This document shows, piece by piece, positions 33,386 through 41,689 of a stretch of 64,000 bases of DNA. The position numbers and the translations under genes are program-made. Every line of letters starts with the position of its first letter. Position 1 is the first letter of the stretch. Under the pieces are notes generated by a model. The model was given only the letters and a program-made list of their open reading frames with translations, had not been told where the DNA came from and did no database searches. This stretch comes from an uncultured Holophagales bacterium (GTDB taxonomy: Bacteria > Acidobacteriota > Thermoanaerobaculia > Multivoradales > UBA5704), in NCBI GenBank assembly GCA_963842525.1, contig CAWJGT010000034.1, forward strand, positions 160,001 to 224,000, written 5' to 3'.

Positions 33386-35149
<1,764 letters not shown>

Positions 35150-35256
35150 CGCTGAGAACAATATCTATACATCCAATTGTCGATCCGTCGCGTAACCCCT
35201 TGTGAACCCGAACGCCGGACGGCGTCCGGGCAACTCACAGAAAGGGGTTAACTCCA

Positions 35257-35814
35257 ATGAATGGAAAGAAAATGCTTGGCGCCCTGCTGGCTCTGGCGGT
35301 GATGGTGGTACCGATGCAGCTCCTGGCGAAAGACAACCCGATGGTCGGCGGTGCAGCCATGTACACCACCAAGGACATCATCGACAATGCCGTCAACTCG
35401 GCCGACCATACAACCCTCGTCGCCGCGGTCAAGGCGGCCGGCCTGGTGGATACCCTCAAGGGCAAGGGGCCGTTCACCGTCTTCGCACCGACCAATGCCG
35501 CCTTCGGCAAGCTGCCGGCCGGCACCGTCGACACTCTGCTCAAGCCCGAGAACAAGCAGACCCTCACCAAGATCCTGACGTATCACGTGGTCCCCGGCAA
35601 CGTCGACTCCGCCGCGCTCGCCAAGATGATCAAGGCCGGCAACGGCAAGGCCACCCTCAAGACTGTCGAGGGCGAAACCCTGACCGCCATGATGACTGGC
35701 AAGAACGTCGCTCTCAAGGATGCGAAGGGCGGCACCTCCACCGTGACGACCGCCGATGTGTATCAGTCGAACGGCGTGATCCATGTCATCGACAGCGTCG
35801 TGATGCCGAAGTAG
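35257..35814 (+). CDS. Secreted fasciclin (FAS1) domain protein
   Basis: Signal peptide; FTVFAPTNAAF, ILTYHVV, NGVIHVID. Confidence 0.95.
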   Translation: MNGKKMLGALLALAVMVVPMQLLAKDNPMVGGAAMYTTKDIIDNAVNSADHTTLVAAVKAAGLVDTLKGKGPFTVFAPTNAAFGKLPAGTVDTLLKPENKQTLTKILTYHVVPGNVDSAALAKMIKAGNGKATLKTVEGETLTAMMTGKNVALKDAKGGTSTVTTADVYQSNGVIHVIDSVVMPK

Positions 35815-35908
35815 TCGGCTTCCCGCCAACACTCTCCCAGCTACACCAGGCAGACGGCAGCAGGGTGCGAGTAGGTCACCCTTGGCTGTTGCTTTGAGCG
35901 ACGGCACT

Positions 35909-35967
35909 GTGGGCTCGCGTCAAGGGCCTCCCCCGGCGACTGCGTGGGCCTCTTGACGCGGGCCCAC
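35909..35967. repeat. Inverted repeat / REP-like hairpin
   Basis: GTGGGCTCGCGTCAAG ... CTTGACGCGGGCCCAC between convergent genes. Confidence 0.6.
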
Positions 35968-36090
35968 GCCTTCAGCCACTGGATCCACAGAGTGGTCTCC
36001 GAGGGCGTATGGCTGGTTCGCGGCGAGCCAATGACCATTCTGCCTGGCGGAGTGTTACGTCTCCAAGCGGCTATTGATTGATAGATGCCG

Positions 36091-36963
36091 TCAGTGCGGC
36101 TCAGGCTGCCGTTCTCTCTCTGGGACCTGGATCGCGTGGATCAACCTGGCGATGCTACTCTCGAAGCTTTCCTTCCTGAGATCCAGGGTCAGGTGCTCCT
36201 TCAGCCGCAAAAGGATCTCGCCGAGGTTGTTGCGCAGCTTGAAGAGACGCGATTTCTCGCTATTCAACTCGACCGGATCGAGCTTCTCTTCGGCGTACCG
36301 CGGCAGCAGCTCATCGATTTCACCGATTCTTGCATCGATCTCCTGCGTCGCGGTCAACCTGAAGCCTGGCTGGAAGAACCCATCATCAAGGTAGCAGGCG
36401 ATGAATTGCCTTCCTCGATCGAATCTCCCATGCTCGAATGCCTGAATCGTCTCCATGGCCACCCAGGCTGAAAGCAGGCTCGTCCTCGAAACCAGCGAGA
36501 CGGTGACATCGGCCTTGGCAATGGAATCCTTGATGAAGCTCTCGATCCCTTCGCCGGCTCTCATCGCCTTGTCGTCGATGAGCACGACGACTCCGGCCGA
36601 TCGGAGGGCCTGCGCCAGCCTCTCGGCAGCCTCACGATCGTGGTGGCTGTACGAAATGAATGCCTGCTTGGCGCCAGTAGTTTCCTGAGTAGGTGGGGCG
36701 TTGGCATCCGGCGCTTCCAGGATTTCAGGGAGCAGGTCCAGAAGCGCATAAGCTACCTTCGTGCGGATCAGGCTCTCCTCGGTGCCGGCGAGGAGCCCCC
36801 GTCGCACCTGCTTCCGGCTGCGCTCGAGGGTCCTACCATGCTCGGTGAGCTCCGCAATGAGCTCGGGATCCCGCTTCCCCAGAAAGGCGAGCAGACGGTC
36901 CACCGTGCCCTCCAGCTTGTCGGCACGAATCAACGCTGTAACTTCGTCTCGCAGGTCGGCCAT
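36091..36963 (-). CDS. EAD11-like domain + TIR domain protein
   Basis: N-terminal helical domain (..VRRGLL..EE...R.K...ALL); TIR AFISYSHHD, SAWVAME with the catalytic-position Glu. Confidence 0.8.
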   Translation of the reverse strand: MADLRDEVTALIRADKLEGTVDRLLAFLGKRDPELIAELTEHGRTLERSRKQVRRGLLAGTEESLIRTKVAYALLDLLPEILEAPDANAPPTQETTGAKQAFISYSHHDREAAERLAQALRSAGVVVLIDDKAMRAGEGIESFIKDSIAKADVTVSLVSRTSLLSAWVAMETIQAFEHGRFDRGRQFIACYLDDGFFQPGFRLTATQEIDARIGEIDELLPRYAEEKLDPVELNSEKSRLFKLRNNLGEILLRLKEHLTLDLRKESFESSIARLIHAIQVPERERQPEPH

Positions 36964-38487
36964 TCAGACCTCGGCTGAAGGTTGTTTCTGGGCGGCTCGC
37001 AACCGCCTCCACTTCGCCATGAGACTCTCTTCCGTGACGTACTCGTGAATCAGATAGAGGGGTGCGAGCAGTGAGAGCACCGTATAGACCATAATTGGAA
37101 TAAATAATAACGAGAACCATCCACTCGTTCCCCATAAAAGAATACCGCTGATCAACCCCGAGACAGTTAGCGTGCCGCAGCCGGTTCCTAAACGTAACGC
37201 CTTTCTTTTCTTGAACCTTATCTTCTCCTGCCTTTTTCCCTCCTCATGTTCCAGCAACTCCGCTTCCAGGCGCCTTTGCTTGGCCCGCAGTATAGGGATC
37301 ACCAGGCTGTCATGGCTCACTTCGTAAGCGTAGCCGCCGCCGGCGTGAGGCTCGGCACGAATCAGATGGGTGTCCACGAGACTGCGGAGGAGGTCGGCTC
37401 CAATCTGATAATTCCTCTGAATTTGGCCCTCATACAGGCTCAGACGACGCTTGTCGTCTTCGAACACCAATCCATCCTCGATCAGTATCCTTGCCGCTTT
37501 CTGCGCATTGGCGGGCAGCTTCTGGATACTGCGTTCGTAATAGCTCTTATAGATCTCCTCCAGGTCCCCGATGTCAGAGGATTCTATATAGGAATCATTT
37601 TGCCTAAGGACGATCTCCTCCTCTACGTGCTGGCAGAGGATCTGAAGCTGAAAGGATTCGATATCCGTGGCCCCGTCCTTGGAGAGGAAGCTCAGTATTC
37701 TGCCGAGGGATTCCTGCTCGTAGGAGAAAGGCGGCGACAGGAAATCACCCTGCTGTGCCGCCGGAAAAATGATCGCCTTCTCGGCCTCGTTGCGAGACAA
37801 GTTGTTGAGCTCAAAACAGTTGCGTAAAATATTCGGCAGCCAGGCAGACAGAGATTCGATATGGCTCATCTTGTCCGAGCGGATGGAAAGGAGAGCCATC
37901 ACAGGGGGCCCGGCCTTGAGAAGCGCCCATTCCTCTTCGGTGAGAAGGGTCGGATCGTAGCGCGTGCGGAGCTGAAGCGACCGGCGGAAACTTTCGGGCA
38001 TGCGGTCGTAGAGCAGATCGGCGAGTGCTTCAGCAAAGTCGCCGACTCCCTGGGGAAATGAGAAAAGCTCCTCGAATTGATCGAACACCAGGAGAATCGC
38101 GCGCTTGTCGGGGTTATCGAGCTGAATTCCCTTGAAGCACTGCCAGATGGAGGGAACCTCCTCGACTCGGGAGAGAAAGTTGTCGCCAGAAGAGATCTGC
38201 AGGAGTCTCTGCTCAAAAATTACTTCGGGCCGCGGCGTGACTCGGGGTATGTAGCTGGTGAAGCGAATCGGAATGGTCAGATAGTTGTGCTCTCTCCCGA
38301 GCAGGGGCACCACGCCGGCGTTGATGAGGGACGACTTGCCGAGGCCGGACCGCCCGTAGAGCACTGTCAGCGGCTCGACCCGAATCTGGGTGGCGAGCTT
38401 CCGGATATCCTCATCGCGGCCGAAGAAGACAGAGCTGTCGTCCGATGTAAAGGGTCGCGAGCCTGGGTAGCGGGGACGTTTCTCCAT
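36964..38487 (-). CDS. STAND (nSTAND1-like) NTPase with C-terminal TM helices
   Basis: YPGSRPF..FFGR, GRSGLGKSS, LVFDQFEE, SIRSD, YEVSHD; two TM segments. Confidence 0.85.
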   Translation of the reverse strand: MEKRPRYPGSRPFTSDDSSVFFGRDEDIRKLATQIRVEPLTVLYGRSGLGKSSLINAGVVPLLGREHNYLTIPIRFTSYIPRVTPRPEVIFEQRLLQISSGDNFLSRVEEVPSIWQCFKGIQLDNPDKRAILLVFDQFEELFSFPQGVGDFAEALADLLYDRMPESFRRSLQLRTRYDPTLLTEEEWALLKAGPPVMALLSIRSDKMSHIESLSAWLPNILRNCFELNNLSRNEAEKAIIFPAAQQGDFLSPPFSYEQESLGRILSFLSKDGATDIESFQLQILCQHVEEEIVLRQNDSYIESSDIGDLEEIYKSYYERSIQKLPANAQKAARILIEDGLVFEDDKRRLSLYEGQIQRNYQIGADLLRSLVDTHLIRAEPHAGGGYAYEVSHDSLVIPILRAKQRRLEAELLEHEEGKRQEKIRFKKRKALRLGTGCGTLTVSGLISGILLWGTSGWFSLLFIPIMVYTVLSLLAPLYLIHEYVTEESLMAKWRRLRAAQKQPSAEV

Positions 38488-38497
38488 GACAGTTGAC

Positions 38498-39568
38498 TCA
38501 CTCGCCGGGCGGCGGCAGTGCCTCATCGATGATGGATGTCAGTTTCTCAGTCGTCCGGGCGCACTCGACGTCTATGTCCTCCTGCTTGATCTGCCCTCTT
38601 CTCCTGTCTTGCAAGAACCGGTTGTAGTGTCCGGACAGAGTGATGACCTCATTGAAGAGACTCCGATCCCCCATCTCTTCGAGGTGGTCCGCCAACGGCT
38701 CGAATAGGCCCTCTATTTTCCCCTGCTTGAGAAGATCGAGAAGGCGCTCGCGTAAGGAGAGGAGGGGCGCCTCCCTGATCTCGCGAAGCTGACCGGCACT
38801 CTCGCAGTGCCTGTAGAGGCTGTCGACGTACTGGACTACACCGGAATCGATGAACTCCAATCCGTAGTTTCGTCCGTAGAAGTCGCGGAGCTGGGCAGGT
38901 GTAAGGTTCTCGGGCTCGGCGGCCTGGGAAGGTTTCTCGCGGCTGAGGCGGAACAAGTTGAGGAGAAGATGGAGATACCACTTCTGGAAGTCGAAGCCCA
39001 AGAAGATGAAGTAGCTCGCCTCTGATATGACCGTCCGCAGCTCATCGGGGAGCTTGAAGTCGCGGATGACGGAAAAGACGAACTGGATGAGATCGGTGTG
39101 AGTCAGGATGAGTGAGGCGTCATCCTCGATGCTGCCAAAAAGGTTGTAAAGCAGGGGGCATTCCTTGGATGGCCGGCCAACGGGTTCCGGAGTGCTCTGC
39201 TTGGCGTAGTATGCAAATTCGTGATCGATCCCGAGCTCGGAGAATGCCGCGGGCAGGACCAGGTCGGGAGTAAGGGAGATGATCAGGTGGGCGGGAATCC
39301 GAGCGAGTTGCCGGTGGAAGTCATTGGGACCGGAGCTCGCGCTGTAGTATTTCTTGATCGGGGTGTAGAGCCGGCGCCTGGTGGCCTCGTCGCAGCGGTA
39401 GAGACCGTCGACATCCTCCGAGACTTGCAGGCGCTGATCGATTAGATGGGCCAGCAAGGCGGTCTGAATCGGCTCGCCCGCTCTGTTGGTGCCGACGTTG
39501 GGACCAAGCAGAATGACGCATCGCTCTTCGGCAAGGTTCTCGGCGATCTCGTCAATTGGTATAGCCAT
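38498..39568 (-). CDS. SIR2-like (SIR2_2) domain + C-terminal EAD11-like domain
   Basis: ILLGP, IISLTPD, LYNLFGS..SLILT, IFLGFDF; C-terminal NEVITLS..YN...RRG.I..ED helical domain. Confidence 0.75.
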   Translation of the reverse strand: MAIPIDEIAENLAEERCVILLGPNVGTNRAGEPIQTALLAHLIDQRLQVSEDVDGLYRCDEATRRRLYTPIKKYYSASSGPNDFHRQLARIPAHLIISLTPDLVLPAAFSELGIDHEFAYYAKQSTPEPVGRPSKECPLLYNLFGSIEDDASLILTHTDLIQFVFSVIRDFKLPDELRTVISEASYFIFLGFDFQKWYLHLLLNLFRLSREKPSQAAEPENLTPAQLRDFYGRNYGLEFIDSGVVQYVDSLYRHCESAGQLREIREAPLLSLRERLLDLLKQGKIEGLFEPLADHLEEMGDRSLFNEVITLSGHYNRFLQDRRRGQIKQEDIDVECARTTEKLTSIIDEALPPPGE

Positions 39569-39594
39569 TTCCGCATGTTCCAACTGGTCCAAGA

Positions 39595-39687
39595 GGCTAA
39601 CAACGCTCCGGAGGCTGCTCCCCTTGGCCGAGAAGATCGAGTCTACTCACGCCGTGCGACGAGCAGCACCGGAATTACCAGTTGACT
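39595..39687 (-). other. attC-like recombination site candidate upstream of the SIR2 gene
   Basis: Minus strand AGTCAAC..TTCCGGTGCTGCTC..GAGCAGCCTCCGGA..GTTAGCC. Confidence 0.35.
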
Positions 39688-39794
39688 TTATCAGCTCTGT
39701 CCTGTTGTTGCAAGGCGGCCCCGCTTCGTGCGCAGCCTTTTACACCTGCCGAGCTTCGGCTGGCGGTACGGCGCGTTATCAATTCGGCTCGCGC

Positions 39795-39905
39795 AGTGAA
39801 GGCTGCTTCGAATACGTAAGGAACAGCATGCGGGCGCTGCGCCAGTCGGCGCTGGCAAGATGGCGGAGGGAGTAACGCCGTTTGAAGAGGTGGTGCTGGT
39901 GACGA
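39795..39905 (+). pseudogene. Degenerate duplicate of the GspE/PilB 3' end
   Basis: GAAGGCTGCTTCGA and GCATGCGG.CGCTGCGCCAGTCGGCGCTG..GAAGAGGTGGTGC.GGTGACG match 34919..35140 with an internal deletion. Confidence 0.75.
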
Positions 39906-39984
39906 GCCTTTTACGAAGGAGCGTTTGGGTGTTCGGAGTCGTCGCCAGCGAACGAGATCGACCGGCCAGGTATCCGTTCCGTCG

Positions 39985-40088
39985 TGTCATCCTGAGCGTA
40001 GCGAAGGATCTGGAGGCAGGGCCTGCGAATCCGTTGCGGTCGTGCTTCCGGGACCCGCCACCGCCCAGATCCTTCGCTCAGGATGTCA
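39985..40088. repeat. Palindromic intergenic repeat (GTCATCCTGAGC..GCGAAGGATC family)
   Basis: TGTCATCCTGAGCGTAGCGAAGGATCTG ... CAGATCCTTCGCTCAGGATGTCA. Confidence 0.75.
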
Positions 40089-40558
40089 GCTCGCTAGGTC
40101 CATCCTTGTCTTCCCCGGCGCAATCGCGATGGCGACCGCGCCTCCGCATCATTCGTCTCGTCCTCAGCAACATCGGCTCCGGAGTCCCGTCTATTTGTCT
40201 GTCCAAACCGATTTTTCTGCCAGGCTGAGTAGTTTTTCAGGCTACAACACCAAACATTCAGCTCTTCGGAGGAAAGATTCCGAGATGCCTCCGTGTGCGC
40301 GGTTGTGGCCTCGGAATCTTTCGTCTTGAGGCCCCAATCATTGGGAGCTCGACGCGAAAGGGGCGTCAGCCGGTCTCAATGAGGCGGAGCCCAGGTCTAA
40401 TGGCACGCCAGGGGCTCCTGAATGCGCAGGAATGTGCTTGAATGGCGCGGACGCAGGTCCCTATGCGCGGAAGGCATTCGCTTGAACCTTCGGCAGGAAG
40501 GAGAATGCTCCGGAGACCCGGACCGGCATCGCGCAGCCGGCTTCTGATGTGAAGGAGC

Positions 40559-40999
40559 TCAGGGCGAATCGTCGCCGCCAGCCTTCCGATAGATCGTGGC
40601 CCTCTGGCCGGCGCCGAGAGACTCGTGCTTCAAAATGTTCTCGCGGATGAGCTCCTCGAGGCATCGGTACAAGGTGCCTCGGTCCGGCTCGTAGCCGAGT
40701 GCCTCGCAAACCTCGGTCCGGGTGAACGTCTCCGGCAGTCGCGACAGCGCTGCGCGGACATCGGCATTCACCTCGGGTGCGCTCCGCCGGCGGGGTTGCT
40801 TGGGCGGAGGGAGTGGCGCGGCGAGTTGGGGAACGGAAGCCGGCACGGCCCCGGTGCTGCCATCCTCCTCCTCCTGGAGCATCCAGACCAGATCGAGGGC
40901 CCGCACCTGGGCCCGGAAGGCCGTCTCCAGAAGCTCGATGCCGGACCGAAGCTGCTCTTCCAGCCGTCGTTTGCGCTGCTCGTACTCATTCCTGGTCAT
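40559..40999 (-). CDS. Hypothetical protein, N-terminal coiled coil + putative winged helix
   Basis: MTRNEYEQRKRRLEEQL..; FTRTEVCEALGYEPDRGTLYRCLEEL. Confidence 0.65.
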   Translation of the reverse strand: MTRNEYEQRKRRLEEQLRSGIELLETAFRAQVRALDLVWMLQEEEDGSTGAVPASVPQLAAPLPPPKQPRRRSAPEVNADVRAALSRLPETFTRTEVCEALGYEPDRGTLYRCLEELIRENILKHESLGAGQRATIYRKAGGDDSP

Positions 41000-41066: not shown

Positions 41067-41489
41067 TTACGAAGGAGCTTTTCCCGCAGGCCAACGCTCC
41101 ACGGCCAAGATCCCGCTGGCAAGAATGATCTCCAGATCTCGGTCACGGACCAGAATGGAGCACCCATGCTCCTCAGCGAGCACTGCGATCAGACAGTCGA
41201 TCGTCGACCGGATCGTCTTTCCCTGCTGACGTAACGCTCGATAGAGATCAGCAGCCCGGAAATACAGCTCGATGCTCGCAGGCTCCAGGAATGTGAGATC
41301 CCGGAACAACTCAGCGAGCCGTTTTCGCCCCTTGTCTCTGCGCAATCCTTGGAAGACTTCCGCGACCACGACGCCACAGGTGCAGATCTCGTGATCGCTT
41401 GGGAACAGCTCAGCCAAAGCCCGCCGCTCAAGAGACGGATAGTCGTTGAAAAAGTCGACCCAGACAGAGGTATCGACGAGAACCTTCAA
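41067..41489 (-). CDS. vapC: VapC family PIN toxin
   Basis: VLVDTSVWV, VVAEVFQG, STIDCLIA, DRDL. Confidence 0.9.
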   Translation of the reverse strand: MKVLVDTSVWVDFFNDYPSLERRALAELFPSDHEICTCGVVVAEVFQGLRRDKGRKRLAELFRDLTFLEPASIELYFRAADLYRALRQQGKTIRSTIDCLIAVLAEEHGCSILVRDRDLEIILASGILAVERWPAGKAPS

Positions 41490-41689
41490 GCTTCCCGTCT
41501 CCGCCCTCGTAAGTCGTCCAGATCTCCCTCCCAGTGGACTTTCCCCTCAAATTCCAAGAATTTCTGCAAACGCCGACGCCGGGCGTATTCCCGGAGCGCT
41601 TCGTTGATGATGTCCGTCTTTGTCTTCCCAGGCGCGACCTTCATGGCGCTCGCGAGTGCTTCGGTATCGAGGTTGAGCGTGGTCCTCAT
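41486..41689 (-). CDS. vapB: VapB antitoxin
   Basis: MRTTLNLD..TKTDIINEALREY..WEGDLDDLR; overlaps vapC start. Confidence 0.88.
   Translation of the reverse strand: MRTTLNLDTEALASAMKVAPGKTKTDIINEALREYARRRRLQKFLEFEGKVHWEGDLDDLRGRRREA

Follow-up and report, generated by a model that had tools for sequence, protein, structure and literature searches.

A 64-kb stretch of DNA from an uncultured Holophagales bacterium (hereinafter, the window, that is, the whole stretch that was analyzed) contains an operon of three genes on the minus strand, at positions 36091-39568. Judging by its sequence, this operon is an EAD11-bridged, sensor-less variant of a widespread, unnamed module that combines a pseudo-SIR2 protein with an nSTAND1 nucleoside triphosphatase (NTPase). 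In the mechanism that we regard as moderately probable, a membrane-embedded, NTP-driven switch, a dead-sirtuin scaffold and an EAD11 bridge would jointly lead to a clustered TIR domain that cleaves nicotinamide adenine dinucleotide (NAD+). The three genes, denoted here g1, g2 and g3, encode the following features:

38498..39568, minus strand: g1, pseudo-SIR2 and EAD11 protein of 356 residues (open reading frame; start MAIPIDE, at the same methionine as in the homologues)
38774..39568, minus strand: SIR2-like domain of g1, residues 1-265, predicted to be catalytically dead, with Phe144 and Thr100 at the ThsA catalytic columns
38522..38755, minus strand: EAD11 of g1 ('a' type), residues 272-349 (Pfam PF19964), with four predicted helices within 272-350
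36964..38487, minus strand: g2, nSTAND1 NTPase with a C-terminal membrane hairpin, 507 residues (start MEKRPRYPG, from the alignment of homologues)
38332..38355, minus strand: Walker A motif of g2, GRSGLGKS (Lys51), with S47, G48, G50, K51 and S53 invariant in 31 STAND homologues
38068..38094, minus strand: Walker B motif of g2, LLVFDQFEE, with D136, Q137, F138 and E139 invariant in 31 homologues
37042..37179, minus strand: hydrophobic hairpin of g2, residues 437-482, a predicted pair of membrane helices joined by a WGTSGW turn (hydropathy scan)
36091..36963, minus strand: g3, EAD11 and TIR protein of 290 residues (open reading frame)
36724..36954, minus strand: EAD11 of g3 ('b' type), residues 4-80 (Pfam and family profile), grouping with effector-borne EAD11 and not with that of g1
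36328..36660, minus strand: TIR domain of g3, residues 102-212 (Pfam), with the codon of Glu171 at 36451-36453 (alignment of the Glu)

The start codons of g1 and g2 were refined from the alignments of homologues, and all starts and stops were checked by translation. The distance between the stop codon of g1 and the ATG of g2 is 10 nucleotides, that between the stop codon of g2 and the ATG of g3 is 0 nucleotides, and the guanine-cytosine (GC) content of the operon is 0.576 compared to 0.673 for the whole window (in a sliding profile, 0.54-0.60 across the operon vs 0.62-0.72 on both sides), in full agreement with the tightly packed, low-GC operon reported in a preliminary description of this DNA.

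One line of evidence on the nature of the operon comes from the gene neighborhoods of the relatives of g1, which were identified by a scan of one genome per species; the scan yielded 175 relatives, of which the best 80 were examined. These 80 loci come mostly from Bacteroidota (Saprospiraceae, Lewinellaceae, Cytophagales and Chitinophagales) and include Acidobacteriota, Gemmatimonadota and Rhodothermales. In 72 of the 80 loci, the immediate downstream neighbor of the g1-like gene is a co-directional nSTAND1 gene; given that four loci end less than 600 nucleotides past the SIR2-like gene, the conservation of this wiring amounts to 72 of the 76 informative loci. Room is available but no downstream nSTAND1 gene is found in L018, L033, L036 (STAND upstream) and L080 (TPR-cyclase gene next). 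The SIR2-like protein carries EAD11 in 69 of the 82 open reading frames found in the loci and in 133 of 150 family representatives (the sample described below). The preliminary proposal of a candidate new system stands in part: there is neither a PADLOC match nor a description that we could find, but the operon is not isolated, being one variant of a widespread family.

The way in which the parts of the operon might touch is suggested by a natural gene fusion. In the 460-residue relative P0052, residues 1-264 match residues 1-263 of g1 (44% identity, E value 6e-81) and residues 260-458 match residues 80-279 of g3 (49% identity, E value 2e-65); there is no EAD11 in P0052, and the junction between its SIR2-like and TIR parts falls exactly where g1 and g3 carry EAD11. 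This fusion point is the strongest evidence that, in the window operon, EAD11-EAD11 contact would stand in for a peptide bond. Ten relatives, P0052 included, were picked for their above-usual length: a C-terminal TIR replaces EAD11 in five (P0052, P0097, P0135, P0190 and L015), an N-terminal TIR is present in one (L049) and an N-terminal guanylate cyclase in another, two combine EAD11 with an N-terminal extension, and one contains nothing further; a STAND gene still follows the TIR-bearing L015 and L049. Beyond the TIR fusions, guanylate/adenylate cyclase domains are attached to the module in two loci: one is fused to the N-terminus of the SIR2-like protein in L047:2268-3971, and the TPR-cyclase gene in L080:7154-8821 occupies the usual place of the STAND gene, which may point to a branch of the family that employs cyclic nucleotides. 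Additional variants are L018:4780-8487 (1235 residues), with two tandem SIR2-like units behind extra N-terminal regions, and P0045 (1158 residues), with the SIR2-like unit at 410-751 behind an extra N-terminal region.

The SIR2-like domain of g1 is predicted to be a pseudo-enzyme, and the same prediction extends to the entire family. The domain is recognized by the Pfam family SIR2_2 (31.2 bits, cut-off 24.5), and its AlphaFold (AF2) model, with a predicted local distance difference test score (pLDDT) of 86.7, yields ThsA (6lhx) as the top Foldseek match (E value 7.6e-11), along with the SIR2 domains of KomC, DSR2 and EfAvs5. In the alignment with ThsA, made with a 21-sequence profile of the g1 family, 'SLTPD' of g1 corresponds to 'TTNYD' of ThsA and 'YNLFG' to 'YKMHG', so that Asn112 is replaced with Thr100 (codon 39269-39271) and His152 with Phe144 (codon 39137-39139). 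A search of a library clustered at 50% identity with the g1 family yielded 1417 clusters at E values of 1e-3 or lower, 956 at 1e-10 and 218 at 1e-30, and columns were counted over the 150 best representatives. None of the 150 has His in the His column, which is occupied by Phe in 105, Leu in 27, Met in 7, Cys in 4, Ile in 3, Val in 2, Thr in 1 and Ala in 1; the Asn column contains Ser in 63, Thr in 46 and Asn in 31. The Asp of the TNYD motif is kept in 138 of the 150 and the Gly that follows the lost His in all 150; the Rossmann GxG signature is replaced with 'LLGP'. The inactivity of the SIR2-like domain, put forward in the preliminary description on account of the TNYD to LTPD and HG to FG changes, is accordingly seen at the aligned ThsA columns and, for the His, across the family.

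Conceivably, this domain could still be an enzyme, one with a non-canonical active site, which would provide the operon with two NAD-targeting effectors. The strong conservation around the lost His, where P138, Y141, N142, G145 and S152 vary little or not at all, is compatible with this possibility, as is the finding that, in most loci, there is no other effector beside the gene pair. We nevertheless consider it quite unlikely: with only Phe, Leu, Met, Cys, Ile, Val, Thr or Ala present, the His column appears to be a buried structural position rather than a catalytic one, and the loss of GxG points in the same direction. Both ThsA and DSR2 require the equivalent Asn and His for the NADase activity. 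Furthermore, relatives add TIR, CHAT or cyclase domains, suggesting that the output does not come from the SIR2-like part.

The product of g2 shows the features of an nSTAND1 protein, that is, a Pfam profile score far above the cut-off (PF20703, 109.9 bits vs 27.1) and intact Walker A and Walker B motifs, such that the NTPase looks active. The AlphaFold model of g2 (mean pLDDT 91.9) resembles ORC/Cdc6, NB-ARC, CED-4 and NOD2; searches of solved structures with the single sequence and with a 31-sequence profile returned P-loop matches only and, by implication, g2 has no solved close relative. The NTPase module is followed by a basic stretch and then by 46 hydrophobic residues, and the C-terminal hairpin is modeled as two long antiparallel helices, residues 393-454 and 462-501. 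Neither Pfam nor the hydropathy scan detected a repeat or sensor domain after the NTPase module, so that the original characterization of a STAND protein with a transmembrane hairpin in lieu of a repeat sensor holds.

Comparison with the STAND proteins encoded beside the g1-like genes suggests what this hairpin is. In 61 of the 66 complete homologues, a hydrophobic helix is found within 130 residues after the NTPase module. The 15 residues flanking this helix contain 382 Lys and Arg residues before it vs 182 after it, with more before it in 58 of the 61 proteins, which, under the positive-inside rule, places the NTPase in the cytoplasm and the following part outside. Hydropathy, the modeled hairpin and the helix shared by the relatives all support the membrane anchoring initially proposed for the STAND protein, with a predicted cytoplasmic location of the NTPase. 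The parts beyond the helix are diverse. The C-terminal tails of ten longer STAND proteins include WD40 repeats in seven (in one case, together with TPR), an FGE-sulfatase domain in one, an IgGFc-binding-like region in one and nothing recognizable in one; the ten genes downstream of short STAND genes encode WD40 in five cases (one with ankyrin), and FGE, CHAT-EAD11 and GNAT in one case each, with no assignment for two. A two-helix arrangement homologous to that of g2 is present in L002, L003 and L030, three other species-level genomes in which the short two-helix STAND gene recurs together with an EAD11-TIR gene; the STAND proteins of these three show 46-47% identity and have a conserved C-terminal tail in common. 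In the STAND protein of L001 (L001:7154-11557), the predicted membrane helices 426-444 and 1408-1426 flank about 960 residues that include an IgGFc_binding-like region, and the tail after the second helix is conserved among L001, the hairpin-only L002, L003 and L030, and g2. By this sequence comparison, g2 resembles a form of the same receptor that has lost the portion outside the membrane. The L001 protein, for its part, is the likely ectodomain-bearing counterpart of the hairpin form found in the window.

Two alternative interpretations of the hairpin-only form have to be considered. First, it could be a killing device, with STAND oligomers forming a membrane lesion and the g1-g3 pair modulating or amplifying the effect. 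The proteins from the window, L002, L003 and L030 have indeed kept only two helices and a conserved amphipathic tail, without a sensor, and CBASS, Thoeris and Avs systems often employ transmembrane effectors. We judge this version to be very unlikely. In the 61 of 66 relatives that have the helix, large WD40, TPR or FGE domains come after it, or a separate sensor gene is present, so that the helix looks like a topological element and not an effector; moreover, an intact TIR is already available in the operon. Second, the absence of a sensor domain in g2, along with an orphan broken gene fragment located just upstream of the operon (see below), might indicate that the window copy is a decaying remnant whose STAND protein, having lost its sensor, no longer works. 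This appears extremely unlikely given the three intact reading frames with the Walker A, Walker B and TIR Glu residues kept, the recurrence of the two-helix form with EAD11-TIR in L002, L003 and L030, and the existence of full-length metagenome homologues with 74-79% identity to g1 and 82% identity to g3.

The putative effector is g3, with a TIR_2 score of 68.8 bits (cut-off 28). In this domain, Glu171 is part of 'SAWVAMET', is invariant in 19 of 19 EAD11-TIR homologues (the list of g3 homologues comprises 23 sequences including the query) and occupies the same alignment column as the WxxxE-motif Glu in PdTIR (3h16) and TcpB (4lzp). Hence the retention of the Glu, as read from the single sequence in the preliminary description, is a family-wide feature and, by the profile match and the conserved Glu expected of a catalytic TIR, the domain looks catalytically active. 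Residues 196-290 of g3 (36094-36378) comprise a conserved helical extension after the TIR that belongs to no Pfam family and is present in P0052 as well.

The same TIR domain brings up a Thoeris-like scheme, in which it would make a cyclic ADP-ribose-type signal that is received by the dead pocket of g1 or by an unlinked effector, with EAD11 keeping both together. The matches of the g3 TIR to ThsB_TIR (22.5 bits, Pfam) and to several ThsB models (PADLOC) speak for it; the kept Asp (138 of 150) and Gly (150 of 150) in the SIR2-like family are compatible with ligand binding without catalysis; and, according to a recent report, many new TIR signaling systems employ unexpected effectors (10.64898/2025.12.03.692087). 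On balance, however, we find such a scheme unlikely because Pfam identifies no SLOG, Macro, SAVED or other known signal-binding domain in the operon, the SIR2-like and TIR parts occur in one chain in relatives, which would be odd for a diffusible signal, the best PADLOC match of g3 is the model of a CBASS TIR-SAVED effector and not ThsB, and the operon contains an NTPase switch that is absent from Thoeris.

An EAD11 bridge between g1 and g3 requires, to begin with, that the helical domains at the end of g1 and at the start of g3 be related, as had been suggested from the sequence. Pfam scores EAD11 at 44.8 bits in g1 and at 22.8 bits in g3, and direct BLASTP comparison of the two copies is marginal (E value 0.039, 29% identity over 58 residues; about 22% overall), so that a dedicated profile was needed. 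Such a profile, made from the tails of 69 SIR2-like proteins from other genomes and including no effector-type copy, matches the first 80 residues of g3 with 38.5 bits, which substantiates the relationship. These two are the only EAD11 matches in the entire 9.95 Mb genome. The copies sort by carrier, with the 'a' type on SIR2-like proteins and the 'b' type on effectors: identity is 34-74% among the 'b' copies, the CHAT-linked one included, vs 19-28% between 'a' and 'b' within an operon. In particular, the third gene of L027 encodes CHAT-EAD11, the EAD11 of which is 43-50% identical to the TIR-linked 'b' copies and 22-30% identical to the 'a' copies. This sorting suggests an old EAD11 pair, heterotypic at the level of subfamilies, in which the 'b' tag stays constant and the effector attached to it changes. 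A recent duplication as the origin of the two copies was also considered and is ruled out by the identity matrix.

Prediction of the complex of the two EAD11 domains gave a median score of 0.48 in three runs, compared to 0.02 for the best of three controls, with a contact agreement of at least 95% among the runs and a partner pLDDT of at least 81. Of 80 solved complexes, 58 reached the mark used for such predictions, as did 2 of 110 mismatched pairs; at scores of 0.60 or below, only 7 of the 80 solved complexes did so, along with both of the passing mismatches. The EAD-EAD coupling proposed in the preliminary description gains support from the P0052 fusion at the EAD11 site and weak support from this prediction of the complex. 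Elsewhere, EAD11 can be far more numerous. Among five genomes searched, L002 and L011 encode 2 copies each, and three genomes of Saprospiraceae/Lewinellaceae encode 19 (L029), 43 (L021) and 20 (L022). In a sample of 25 EAD11 proteins, the partner domains were TIR in four, CarboxypepD_reg in three, and AAA_35, FGE, SEFIR, GTPase, SH3, TPR, a receiver domain and putAbiC in one each; one adaptor family may serve many effectors in the L029, L021 and L022 genomes.

Under the mechanism that we favor, g2 would be an NTP-driven switch held in the inner membrane by its C-terminal two-helix hairpin, and g1 its constant companion, a scaffold or adaptor in place of an enzyme. The C-terminal EAD11 of g1 would bind the N-terminal EAD11 of g3, bringing the TIR to the activated STAND assembly, where clustering would switch on NAD+ cleavage through Glu171. 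The system as a whole would be an NLR-like conflict device, most likely anti-phage, of the abortive-infection type. We infer the g1-g2 and g1-g3 binding, the activation by oligomerization, the NAD+ depletion and the defense role from the domains, their conservation and their context. The window version of g2 may respond to a disturbance of the membrane or the envelope, or else might sense via g1 or via the STAND core. A more specific and rather doubtful extension of this scheme is that the operon is a minimal, closed counterpart of innate signaling systems, in which an ectodomain-less, membrane NLR-like ATPase reads a membrane disturbance (for example, the entry of a phage genome, the action of a holin or the loss of the membrane potential) and passes the signal to the pseudo-enzyme and, through the contact between the 'a' and 'b' copies of EAD11, to the TIR.

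Several observations weigh against this mechanism. A second EAD11 protein is found near the pair, within the fetched flanks, in only 7 of the 80 loci, namely, EAD11-TIR in L001, L002, L003 and L030, CHAT-EAD11 in L027, EAD11-SH3 in L064, and EAD11 with an unassigned region in L011, which implies that, in most relatives, the output is encoded elsewhere or is not EAD11-tagged. No EAD11 was detected in g2 by Pfam or by the 69-tail profile (not reported even at E values up to 10), and none in the STAND open reading frames across the 80 loci. The g3 copy of EAD11 scores just below the Pfam cut-off of 26 bits, the score of the predicted EAD11 complex lies within the weak band only, and the roughly 22% identity of the two copies departs from the published remark that neighboring EAD copies are most closely related to one another (PMC7159879). 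The g1-g2 contact is deduced from adjacency of the genes, which alone is not binding. The positive-inside count might partly mirror a conserved basic juxtamembrane motif, and g2 contains no recognizable sensor that would point to a trigger. Finally, a defense role is proposed from domain content and context, and PADLOC offers no system-level support for it.

The closest conceptual framework is that of the EAD-coupled STAND/NTPase counter-invader systems described by Kaur, Burroughs, Iyer and Aravind (eLife 2020, PMC7159879; eLife 2021, PMC8195603), where nSTAND1 is named (PMC8195603), EADs are likened, on the strength of genome analysis, to the animal Death domains that join switches to effectors (PMC8195603), and the EAD principle is formulated as one copy on a core component, with adjacent copies tending to be closest relatives (PMC7159879, PMC8195603). 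Like these systems, the window operon has a terminal, non-enzymatic, helical EAD11 on two proteins, one of which is a TIR effector, as well as an nSTAND1 core and swappable effectors (TIR here, CHAT in L027), and its relatives carry FGE/FGS, WD40 and TPR sensors. Unlike in these systems, the NTPase carries no EAD, the copy being carried instead by a SIR2-fold protein that is predicted to be dead; neither copy is the closest relative of the other; and the STAND protein is predicted to be inserted in the membrane and is sensor-less in the window copy. Thus, the operon shows the two-protein EAD arrangement and the effector-fused terminal copy typical of EAD systems, but neither the NTPase-fused copy nor the closest-relative relationship. 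The main texts of these two papers, as far as these are accessible, contain no mention of EAD11 and make no connection between SIR2 and an nSTAND1 partner, although the supplements might list one.

Two described types of defense systems come close to the operon in gene content. Avs5 (AVAST type 5; EfAvs5, PDB 9jap) has a SIR2 fold N-terminal to the STAND module, which is reminiscent of the SIR2-fold protein encoded here just before the STAND gene, and the EfAvs5 chain is matched by the g1 model in Foldseek (rank 45, E value 3.9e-7). Avs5, however, combines in a single chain a catalytically active SIR2 NADase and a sensor located in the cytoplasm, in contrast to the separate SIR2-fold protein lacking the His, the separate TIR output and the membrane-anchored STAND protein of the window. 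Membership in Avs, including Avs5, was accordingly rejected on account of the three separate genes, the lack of sensor repeats in g2, the dead SIR2 and the membrane anchor. Type I Thoeris (ThsA, SIR2-SLOG, and ThsB, TIR) likewise combines a SIR2-fold protein with a TIR protein in one operon, and ThsA is the best match of g1 in both sequence and fold; g1, unlike ThsA, contains no SLOG domain and retains the SIR2 fold of an active NADase without its catalytic residues (His152 and Asn112 being replaced), an NTPase switch is present, and the link appears to be a pair of protein adaptors and not, as far as visible, a diffusible nucleotide. Given the absence of a signal-binding domain in g1, g2 and g3, and the presence of the STAND NTPase, membership in Thoeris was rejected as well, in accord with the preliminary description, where the layout was set apart from both Thoeris and single-gene Avs.

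Closely related to the operon are the modules that consist of a pseudo-SIR2-TIR fusion and a membrane-spanning nSTAND1 protein: the SIR2-like family, the nSTAND1 clade with the transmembrane helix and the gene order are the same, and the difference is that these modules join the SIR2-like part covalently to TIR and mostly include an ectodomain sensor, whereas the window has two EAD11-tagged proteins and the hairpin only. In outline, the arrangement, in which a non-enzymatic helical adaptor pair connects a switch or receptor with an output domain (TIR or caspase), works like the animal Death-fold signaling complexes, such as the Myddosome and the apoptosome, an analogy drawn by Kaur and colleagues (PMC8195603) that does not imply homology; unlike MyD88, in which TIR is a scaffold, the TIR here would be an enzyme. 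The possibility that the operon is a described system under another name was examined and gained no support, there being no system-level match in PADLOC or NCBIfam. Specifically, in PADLOC-DB 2.0.0, g1 has no match, g2 has matches of P-loop length only (best E value 2.3e-4), and g3 has generic TIR matches from several systems. No description of the pseudo-SIR2/nSTAND1 module was found in the literature, although the supplements of PMC7159879 and PMC8195603 may hold EAD11 architectures; the nearest mention, in 10.1101/2025.11.14.688446, is a passing one, of 'transmembrane STAND ATPases' that act as sensors in fusions with Pepco-associated proteases. An experimental test of an EAD11 pair was likewise not found in the searchable literature.

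The locus is accessory and island-like: its GC content is low, a vapBC toxin-antitoxin pair is located nearby, and orthologues of the operon are absent from 40 related genomes, 5 of the same genus and 19 more of the same family (the best match there shows 29% identity, with an E value of 1.5e-22); the genome of the window itself is 96% complete and consists of 34 contigs. The flanking features are as follows:

35050..35140, plus strand: 3' end of a GspE/PilB-like ATPase gene, the left copy of a direct repeat of about 90 nucleotides (repeat families D2 and D4)
39815..39904, plus strand: orphan, frame-broken copy of the 3' end of the ATPase gene, the right copy of the repeat (86-90% identical; GspE-like C-terminal residues in fragments of open reading frames)
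41067-41689, minus strand: toxin-antitoxin pair of VapC (PIN) and VapB, located upstream of the operon at a distance of about 1.5 kb

The two copies of the repeat, 86-90% identical with a 1-nucleotide offset, bracket a fasciclin gene along with the three-gene operon, and the arrangement is reminiscent of the scar that an integration event at the 3' end of this ATPase gene would leave behind; no integrase was found between the copies. DNA homology to all five genomes of the same genus ends at the stop codon of the ATPase gene, at 35104-35150 (window 33386-35149 vs L121-L126), and the next 1.5 kb in these five genomes matches nothing across the 64-kb window, suggesting that the region past this stop codon is a variable spot in the genus. 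A clean insertion bounded by the repeat gained no support: with the downstream 1.5 kb of the same-genus genomes unmatched in the window, no empty site could be shown. Further to the left, a 175-nucleotide stretch at 31458-31632 matches, with 80-83% identity, the beginning (5' end) of the ATPase gene region of the relatives and may represent a second partial copy upstream of the intact ATPase gene. On the other side, a 146-residue open reading frame without a family assignment (40559-40999) adjoins the VapBC pair. A promoter and terminator scan of 35800-40600 found no promoter-like sites (1.4 expected) and two terminator-like sites, both on the wrong strand (3.8 expected).

This setting bears on whether the module is directed against phages at all. 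Instead, it could function in envelope stress, kin recognition or programmed death in social or multicellular bacteria: EAD systems have been linked to the multicellular habit (PMC7159879), the relatives of the operon are concentrated in Saprospiraceae, Cytophagales and Acidobacteriota, EAD11 is expanded in some of the relatives (19, 20 and 43 copies per genome), and the sensors are predicted to be located outside the cytoplasm. We assign a very low likelihood to such a role considering that the low GC content, the patchy distribution and the toxin-antitoxin neighbor constitute the usual signature of defense islands, and that the TIR, CHAT, putAbiC and SEFIR partners are typical immune effectors.

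All things considered, the operon is not a new category; it belongs to a well-supported family, of which the window copy is the most compact form for experiments. It makes an unusually clean test case for EAD adaptors, with one adaptor pair per genome, one NTPase, one effector with a clear catalytic residue, and a natural fusion that predicts which parts touch. The family itself, represented by the 218 clusters found at E values of 1e-30 or lower, is sizeable and unnamed and, as predicted, combines a sirtuin fold turned pseudo-enzyme with an NLR-like ATPase that crosses the membrane, which makes it conceivable that bacteria use STAND proteins to detect invaders at the membrane or beyond it. 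If the proposed mechanism is true, annotation tools would gain a new defense family, and the module would exemplify scaffolding by a pseudo-enzyme in the immunity of prokaryotes. Should the minimal, closed version of it prove correct, the EAD principle and outside-in or membrane-level STAND signaling would be demonstrable with three genes, which is feasible because the genome holds only one adaptor pair.

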